From IMG/VR virus record IMGVR_UViG_3300015608_003951, positions 64,001 to 128,000 of that record: a stretch of 64,000 nt of DNA; one strand, 5' to 3'. The position numbers and the translations under genes are program-made. Position 1 is the first letter of the stretch; every line of letters starts with the position of its first letter. Source of the stretch: a virus (lineage: Duplodnaviria; Caudoviricetes). Of this stretch, positions 5,801 to 5,949 are shown in pieces. Under the pieces are notes generated by a model. It ran no database searches and was not told the origin of the DNA. It was given only the letters and a program-made list of their open reading frames with translations.

Positions 5801-5855
5801 CAAGCAACGTGCAGCAGACTAGCGTACGACTAGCTTTGGGGCCTTAGGCCCCCCT

Positions 5856-5928
5856 GAGGGTGTAGTTCAATTGGCAGAACGACGGCCTTAATCCCCGTGC
5901 GTTGTGGGTTCGAGTCCCCCCACCCTCG
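5856..5928 (+). tRNA. atypical tRNA, anticodon UAA (5889-5891), short variable loop
   Basis: Acceptor GAGGGTG/CACCCTC, D arm GTTC/GAAC, T loop TTCGAGT; C31.C39 and U50.C64 mismatches, U37, G73, no encoded CCA. Confidence 0.8.
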
Positions 5929-5949
5929 CAGATCTGGTAGGTTTGACGC

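Follow-up and report, generated by a model that had tools for sequence, protein, structure and literature searches.

What does a phage tRNA do when its anticodon, UAA, pairs with a sense codon that, in the same genome, appears to behave as a stop? We addressed this question in the virus record IMGVR_UViG_3300015608_003951, a phage genome of 162,306 bp with a GC content of 62% and an estimated completeness of 87%. The window, which is the whole 64,000-nucleotide stretch that was analysed, corresponds to bases 64001–128000 of the record, and positions given below are those of the window unless another contig is named.

Structure of the tRNA gene

Besides the tRNA under study, hereafter tRNA(UAA), the whole record contains one other tRNA gene, a tRNA-Met(CAT) that lies beyond the window. 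ARAGORN, which had been proposed as a check on the original prediction, called a single tRNA in the window, at 5856–5929 on the plus strand and with anticodon taa. The Rfam model RF00005 matched it over the full model with 51.1 bits (E 6e-10), and this score lies over the gathering threshold of 29, so that the gene passes as a member of the family. Thus, the cloverleaf that had been seen around the letters TAA is a real tRNA gene.

As read from the sequence, the acceptor stem has seven Watson-Crick pairs out of seven and the D stem four out of four. The D arm is generic, with a 4-bp stem (GTTC/GAAC), an 8-nt D loop and no A20a. In the anticodon arm, four pairs are followed by a C31·C39 mismatch (C31 at 5886 and C39 at 5894), and the loop, CTTAATC, contains U33, the anticodon UAA at 5889–5891 and U37 at 5892. 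The variable loop is 5 nt long, and the T stem bears a U50·C64 mismatch. The discriminator is G73, at 5928, and is followed by CAG, so that CCA is not encoded. The short variable loop, G73, U37, the two mismatches and the missing CCA had all been listed beforehand, and all are readable. The set of tertiary nucleotides is complete (U8, A14, G18G19, A21, U33, G53, U54, U55, C56, A58, C61 and A15/U48). The cloverleaf lies 3 kcal/mol above the thermodynamic minimum, a gap that unmodified tRNAs commonly show, and its z-score of -1.2 is uninformative.

The phage occurs in sequencing runs from wastewater and activated sludge, and there are no RNA runs among those listed for the locus. One contig, X5, is identical to the window over 5873–7021, G73 included, and a contig from a freshwater run, X6, has one difference somewhere within 5166–7321. 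Among strain variants, the flank at 5687–5849 differs at 14 positions, and no change in the tRNA is found among the differences listed. A megablast search of the GenBank phage records gave no match.

Genes surrounding the tRNA

tRNA(UAA) lies inside a row of genes on the same strand, an operon, and has no promoter of its own (Table 1). It starts 22 bases past the canonical stop of an ORF whose product would have 135 or 146 residues, depending on whether it ends at an in-frame TTA or at that stop. The GGGGCC-TTA-GGCCCC hairpin that had been noted just upstream was found; it was not called as a terminator, and is probably a processing or stability element. In a variant strain it carries a one-base deletion at 5849.

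The gene for a PTH2-family peptidyl-tRNA hydrolase lies 470 bases upstream of tRNA(UAA). Besides PTH2, searches of the neighbouring small proteins against Pfam, PHROGs and the ESM Atlas returned nothing. The helicase downstream of the tRNA has many homologues, and the nearest are encoded on two short Logan contigs, L121 (64% identical) and L120 (60%); a search of IMG/VR with helicase peptides revealed no close relative. The window PTH2 is 57% identical to that of L121 (alignment A1), which likewise lies upstream of a tRNA and a helicase.

The helicase gene varies in several ways. In a wastewater run of 2025, one contig lacks 861 bases (7326–8188) within the C-terminal part of the gene, a natural deletion variant. 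Among the homologues P0003 and P0004, one has an intein carrying a LAGLIDADG domain, and other homologues are fused to an InPase domain, which opens the next gene of the window (8254–11577).

Table 1. Features around tRNA(UAA) and an example of a terminal TTA followed by a terminator-like hairpin
Feature	Positions	Strand	Evidence	Remarks
Conserved 101-aa protein	4773..5078	+	Alignment A3	No family match; ends at TTA 5076-5078
PTH2-family peptidyl-tRNA hydrolase, 106 aa	5062..5382	+	Pfam PF01981, 39 bits; PHROG hydrolase	Stop TGA
135-aa protein	5393..5800	+	Sequence	Ends at TTA 5798-5800
GC-rich hairpin GGGGCC-TTA-GGCCCC	5838..5852	+	Sequence	3 bases 5' of tRNA(UAA); no following T run
tRNA(UAA), positions 1-73	5856..5928	+	ARAGORN, Rfam, sequence reading	
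SNF2-family helicase	5950..8238	+	Pfam	Begins 21 bases past tRNA(UAA)
Terminal TTA, then hairpin and T run	12578..12620	+	Sequence	TTA 12578-12580; like an intrinsic terminator

TTA codons are concentrated at gene ends

Genes were called by a crude method based on the GC content at third codon positions, which gave 160 genes with 47,736 codons. TTA is the rarest sense codon (43 of 47,736), and 20 of these 43 lie within the last 12 codons of a gene, as compared to 1.7 expected. This enrichment is 11.6-fold, and that of the next codon is 3.3-fold. The earlier impression that TTA looks like a stop is therefore confirmed as a positional pattern. TTA is present at at least 30 gene boundaries and almost never elsewhere, and genes ending in TTA occur in every part of the genome.

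The immediate surroundings of these codons resemble those of ordinary stops. Seven junctions read TTATG, mimicking TGATG and TAATG; start codons are found 1–3 bases past TTA, with ribosome-binding sites just ahead of it; and three gene boundaries are separated solely by an in-frame TTA. At some gene ends, a hairpin and T-run terminator lies directly 3' of TTA, and in L120 a TTA at 8551 is likewise followed directly by a terminator. The terminator-like hairpins of this clade share a T-run-plus-AGCC motif, TTTAGCC (window 12578–12625, L120:8551–8595 and L121:3010–3040), which may be a clade-specific terminator or promoter element.

The helicase ends with ...STEL, followed by TTA (8236–8238), TGC and TAG, and its orthologues end with ...SDQL or ...SDEL and then a stop at the position of the TTA (alignment A6). 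L121 has CTC TGA here versus CTC TTA in the window, a single G-to-T change. The similarity between the 101-aa protein and its L121 orthologue also runs out at the terminal TTA. Around TTA 5798, the differences in a variant strain fall mostly on third codon positions on the 5' side; on the 3' side they affect mixed codon positions and include a 1-base insertion, and the next codon is TAA. A homologue search with the ORF at 37957–39291 matched only the ORF itself.

As compared to canonical stops, which are followed by an in-frame canonical stop within 10 codons in 41 of 128 cases, TTA is followed by one in 18 of 32 cases; for TTA 5798–5800 the next one is at 5831–5833. Since nearby back-up stops are enriched, TTA must be read through at least sometimes, and is an imperfect stop. 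Half of the tails past TTA are no longer than 10 codons, and some have 45–275. In tails of neutral sense sequence, drift should have replaced the codon at the boundary; the recurrence of TTA at the boundaries argues that TTA itself is the signal.

No end-clustering of TTA was observed in eight loci of more distant relatives (50–60% GC), where the codon is spread evenly, or in two Acidimicrobiales genomes, in one of which (200 kb sampled) it is again spread evenly. Because the pattern is absent from these relatives and from both genomes, it is particular to this phage, perhaps together with its nearest kin; it is real, and not an artefact of the gene caller. A sequencing or base-modification artefact was rejected, as the sequence recurs across assemblies from several studies and the effect is frame-specific. 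A host code in which TTA is a stop or unassigned is not supported either: the two Acidimicrobiales genomes both carry a normal long-arm tRNA-Leu(UAA) and show no end-clustering, host assignment to this group being only a lead. In the second of these genomes, a Microthrixaceae MAG (G007, the genome behind contig L352), a single TTA was counted in 56,051 sampled codons despite a canonical tRNA-Leu(UAA).

Other gene-end peculiarities were encountered. TAA makes up 15–19% of the canonical stops of the phage (23–31 genes), versus 1–6% in the two Acidimicrobiales genomes and, in the nearest relatives, 1 of 22, and AT-rich gene ends seem to be generally favoured in the phage. At 24209–24211 of the genome, outside the window, the in-frame TTA that ends a plus-strand gene reads, on the minus strand, as what looks like the TAA stop of a convergent gene, and the two genes would share their last three bases. 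In practice, standard gene callers go wrong on roughly one gene in five of this genome, creating false tails and fusions.

G73 speaks against leucine charging

The discriminator A73 serves in all three domains as the conserved leucine determinant, G73 acts as an antideterminant for LeuRS, and the long variable arm is dispensable for E. coli LeuRS (PMC9976931). None of the synthetase identity sets published there matches a UAA anticodon together with G73. Held against bacterial tRNA-Leu, tRNA(UAA) has neither A73 nor the long type II variable arm; of the tertiary elements, A15, U48 and G18G19 are present and A20a is absent. Judging by its sequence, tRNA(UAA) very probably does not accept leucine, because of G73 and not because of its short variable arm. 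The expectation that it is probably not leucylated is supported, on this ground in place of the variable arm.

To place these features, we searched IMG/VR with a pattern of the anticodon arm and T loop in which position 37 was left free. It retrieved 58 distinct genes for phage tRNAs in which the anticodon is UAA or CAA and the variable loop is short. These short-arm tRNA-Leu(UAA/CAA) genes, 73–75 nt long up to position 73, are widespread in phages (L234–L302). Alignment A5 combines 61 of them, from IMG/VR and one metagenome contig, with tRNA(UAA) in 62 rows. A73 is present in at least 90% of the rows of A5 and in 54 of 58 genes by count, where we judged the four exceptions to be register errors of the counting. 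All 58 scored genes have a purine at position 37; a metagenome member, L302, has U37 yet A73. The 31–39 pair is G-C in 25 genes, A·C in 17 and C·C in 15, and only 25 of the 58 encode CCA. The D arm of the group is of the leucine type, having A20a and a stem of 3 bp. In G001, the relative in IMG/VR that is closest to the phage (56% identity in the helicase), two genes of this type are present, and A31·C39 occurs in each. Our literature search did not find this group described, and its wide distribution bears on natural recognition by LeuRS.

tRNA(UAA) resembles the group in its length, its 5-nt variable loop, its T arm, the often missing CCA and its anticodon-arm stem, with the 3' strand CCCCG and the frequent N31·C39 mismatch. 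The group motif, CGG-N-YUYAAR-CCCCG combined with a 5-nt variable loop and a GTTCGA T loop, fits it save for U37. However, whereas the group has a near-invariant A73, a purine at position 37 in all 58 scored genes, a 3-bp D stem and A20a, tRNA(UAA) has G73, U37 and a 4-bp D arm. With A73 and the leucine-type D arm missing, we did not file it as a member.

This comparison alters the view of tRNA(UAA) as an aberrant tRNA. Since a short variable loop, C31·C39 and a missing CCA are common in the phage short-arm group, they are not aberrations; G73 is the part of that description that stands. What is unusual is the combination of G73 and a UAA anticodon with a generic 4-bp D arm lacking A20a. U37 is rare but not unique: the rule that position 37 is nearly always a purine holds for the 58 short-arm genes, and L302 breaks it.

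A probably remodelled tRNA body

Positions 8–30 of tRNA(UAA) are identical to those of tRNA-Gln(UUG) in many Acidimicrobiia genomes. Of the genome matches to this segment, 107 of 119 are tRNA-Gln(UUG), and the remainder are mainly tRNAs for Asn and Trp, which are G73 classes too. The anticodon and T arms, on the other hand, resemble those of the short-arm Leu tRNAs of phages. Over the whole tRNA, identity amounts to 52–55 of 73 to each of the Asn, Trp, Gln, Lys and Leu tRNAs, and a nearest neighbour therefore does not settle ancestry or isotype. From Gln-type tRNAs, tRNA(UAA) differs chiefly in the anticodon loop, at 6 of 9 positions, and also at four pairs of the acceptor stem. tRNA(UAA) shares G73 with the Gln, Asn and Trp tRNAs of Actinomycetota, and has none of their cognate anticodons (UUG, GUU or CCA).

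The stems differ from those of the Acidimicrobiia Gln and Asn tRNAs and of the phage Leu tRNAs, yet all pairs but two are Watson-Crick. Stem sequences that have changed while pairing was kept speak for a tRNA that has been remodelled and maintained rather than one in decay. Descent from a decaying tRNA-Lys(CTT)-like gene, raised earlier in view of the CTTAATC loop, is not supported: the discriminator is G73 where A73 would be needed, no anticodon stem forms when CTT is taken as the anticodon, so that the Lys register does not fold, and all stems keep their pairing. A first search with the loop pattern (CTTAATC...) had returned mostly tRNA-Lys(CTT) genes. A role as a phage attachment site was also rejected; no integrase (Phage_integrase) domain was found, and the tRNA is full length and inside an operon.

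Given the match at positions 8–30, and since the runs come from wastewater and activated sludge, an Acidimicrobiia host is a lead and no more. The tRNA-Met of the phage is only about 80% identical to Acidimicrobiales tRNAs.

Amber suppressor tRNAs in the nearest relatives

The gene order PTH2, small genes, tRNA and helicase is kept in both L121 and L120, with a few more small genes between the tRNA and the helicase in L120. The tRNA at this place, at 2929–3003 in L121 and 2054–2131 in L120, has the anticodon CUA of an amber suppressor, and the two bodies are unlike each other, one being Lys-like and the other Glu-like by our reading. The stops of these relatives are nearly all TGA, and TAG accounts for 0–1 of 22 genes, which suggests that TAG may be recoded in this clade. 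However, in-frame TAG was absent from the available DNA, including the main genes of L120 over 17 kb.

tRNA(UAA) shares the genomic place of these suppressors, and its anticodon reads UUA and none of TAA, TAG and TGA. An ochre-suppressor register (anticodon UUA in a 9-nt loop) was rejected, since stem pairing fixes the register and TAA serves as the stop of 23–31 genes. Thus, the interval from PTH2 to the helicase contains, in this clade, a tRNA that reads a terminator-type codon. A normal tRNA of another isotype in relatives had been named as what would overturn the original prediction; a different tRNA is indeed found there, but it is an amber suppressor and not an ordinary tRNA. The proximity of PTH2 is not specific to TTA, as PTH2 is also linked to these suppressors, which look normal, and, in the distant relative G001, to ordinary tRNA genes.

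Possible roles of tRNA(UAA) at terminal UUA

In the phage record (162 kb, 87% complete), RF-1, eRF1 and EF-Tu-type GTPase domains were not found, nor were class Ia and IIb synthetase domains. tRNA(UAA) is the only UUA-specific element that we found in the record. Since it is the sole such element, its shape is kept and leucine identity is absent, the most economical reading is that the tRNA itself gives UUA its meaning at gene ends. We tentatively prefer this reading, in which tRNA(UAA) would be a non-leucylated UUA reader that lends terminal UUA a stop-like meaning, and hold it to be a serious possibility that nevertheless falls short of an even chance; expression, non-charging, action in the A site and release are all presumed in it.

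The events could proceed as follows. tRNA(UAA) would be cut from the polycistronic transcript and given its CCA by a host enzyme, and G73 would keep it from being leucylated. At UUA in the A site it would outcompete the scarce host Leu-tRNA(UAA) and end the protein there. In one variant, its uncharged CCA end would promote hydrolysis of peptidyl-tRNA in the peptidyl-transferase centre, an activity that uncharged CCA ends are known to have in vitro. In another, tRNA(UAA) would accept the chain and drop off the ribosome, and the neighbouring PTH2 would free the protein. Occasional decoding of UUA by host Leu-tRNA would select for nearby back-up stops. As a side effect, host proteins might be prematurely terminated at internal UUA codons, which the phage avoids. 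The full proposal, that the phage uses a non-chargeable or dead-end tRNA of its own to make the sense codon UUA signal the end of genes, with no protein release factor involved and possibly with codon-specific shut-off of the host, is in our estimate somewhat improbable.

Several points weigh on the other side. We are not aware of any example in vivo in which a tRNA mediates termination. EF-Tu does not deliver uncharged tRNA, which brings about only slow release in vitro and would activate RelA in the A site. A phage release factor could be encoded in the missing part of the genome, or could be too divergent for Pfam. The UAA anticodon would also read UUG by wobble, yet 526 TTG codons lie inside the phage genes. 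L120 has a terminal TTA but only a CUA tRNA within 18 kb. U37 and U50·C64 could also be signs of a weak or failing tRNA.

The alternative that survives best resembles suppression. tRNA(UAA) could be a tRNA charged at a low level that takes a set fraction of ribosomes past terminal UUA while another terminator is at work, be it a phage or host factor that escaped recognition or slow decoding with subsequent rescue. The outcome would be extended or fused products, or translation coupled to the next gene, and several TTA codons are indeed followed by the next gene in frame, so that fusions are possible. The enrichment of back-up stops past TTA favours this idea, and the CUA suppressors of L121 and L120, which have differing bodies at a like place, suggest repeated selection for a terminator-reading tRNA at this site; U37 and the loop-closing mismatch would be compatible with low efficiency. 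Nevertheless, both a UUA terminator of unrecognised kind and a charging enzyme would be required, and none of the known identity sets combines G73 with UAA. As expected with a suppressor, the relatives hardly ever stop at TAG, whereas this phage does the reverse with TTA. Moreover, TTA-ended genes throughout the genome would burden many proteins with junk tails. On balance we regard such read-through as unlikely.

Phage tRNAs that supply rare codons are common, and tRNA(UAA) might simply decode UUA, as leucine or another residue, to prevent stalling at a codon that is poorly read in a high-GC host, TTA being a sense codon in dispensable tails. The helicase TTA amounts to a single G-to-T change and is followed by a stop two codons on, and half of all tails are as short as 10 codons or less. 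The short-arm tRNA-Leu genes of other phages and the single TTA counted in the candidate-host genome would also accord with such a helper. However, G73 speaks against leucine charging, and a helper leaves unexplained why TTA recurs at at least 30 boundaries and almost nowhere else, since neutral tails would lose it. Terminators and ribosome-binding sites inside the supposed tails, and tails of 45–275 codons, are equally unaccounted for. We therefore consider a simple decoding role quite improbable.

We attach a similarly low probability to the view that tRNA(UAA) no longer decodes, whether as a relic decoder left over after UUA changed meaning, as a tRNA-shaped processing signal for RNase P and RNase Z between cistrons, or as a decoy for a host defence that targets tRNAs. 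G73, U37, U50·C64 and the missing A20a, taken together, would suit such a remnant, and so would its location inside an operon with no own promoter and a hairpin at its 5' edge. The other tRNAs at the corresponding place in the nearest relatives suggest that its content turns over. On the other hand, the stems have diverged with pairing kept, the tertiary nucleotides are intact, and the anticodon matches exactly the oddly distributed codon. Furthermore, the tRNA is free of listed strain differences, though the adjoining flank has accumulated 14.

Comparison with known recoding systems

Among phages, the nearest parallel to a tRNA that gives UUA a stop-like meaning is found in stop-recoded phages, whose suppressor tRNAs read TAG or TGA as an amino acid (bioRxiv 10.1101/2021.08.26.457843; PMC9523058; PMC10879173). 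In both cases, if the role proposed here is correct, a phage-encoded tRNA alters the reading of one codon. Suppressors turn a canonical stop into sense, whereas tRNA(UAA) pairs with a sense codon used at gene ends, and this phage concentrates the cognate codon of its tRNA at gene ends instead of avoiding it there. By this analogy we file tRNA(UAA) as a putative phage tRNA that redefines one codon, nearest to the recoding tRNAs but acting in the opposite direction.

Changes from sense to stop have occurred in organelles. In vertebrate mitochondria, AGA and AGG are stops that are read by a specialised release factor, and organelle systems of this kind lack the cognate tRNA. The closest parallel at the level of the codon is Thraustochytrium, whose mitochondria use TTA, the same codon as in the phage, as a stop (NCBI table 23). 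The organelle cases and the phage are alike in that a rare codon of a six-fold family ends frames. They differ in that the phage has kept the cognate tRNA and maintained its structure, and that no release-factor gene was found.

Two further systems share features with the phage. In Streptomyces, bldA is a canonical long-arm tRNA-Leu(UAA) with A73, and the sole reader of the rare TTA; here too the genome is GC-rich, TTA is very rare and the genes that contain it depend on one tRNA. However, the TTA codons of bldA targets are inside genes, and those of the phage are at their ends. In Candida, a Ser-tRNA(CAG) reads CUG, as its synthetase ignores the anticodon, and the codon appears inside genes. 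Like this tRNA, tRNA(UAA) carries the anticodon for a leucine codon on the body and discriminator of another class, positions 8–30 and G73 being of the Gln/Asn/Trp type. Unlike in Candida, no synthetase fits tRNA(UAA), and UUA is kept out of genes.

To our knowledge, all translation termination described so far uses protein release factors, and known phage recoding converts stop to sense, never sense to stop. The phage is thus a testable candidate for a sense-to-stop change outside organelles, possibly with RNA-based termination. If tRNA(UAA) does act as a terminator, the mechanism would be categorically new; even under the tamer readings, it would be a novel route by which a phage keeps its decoding distinct from the host's.
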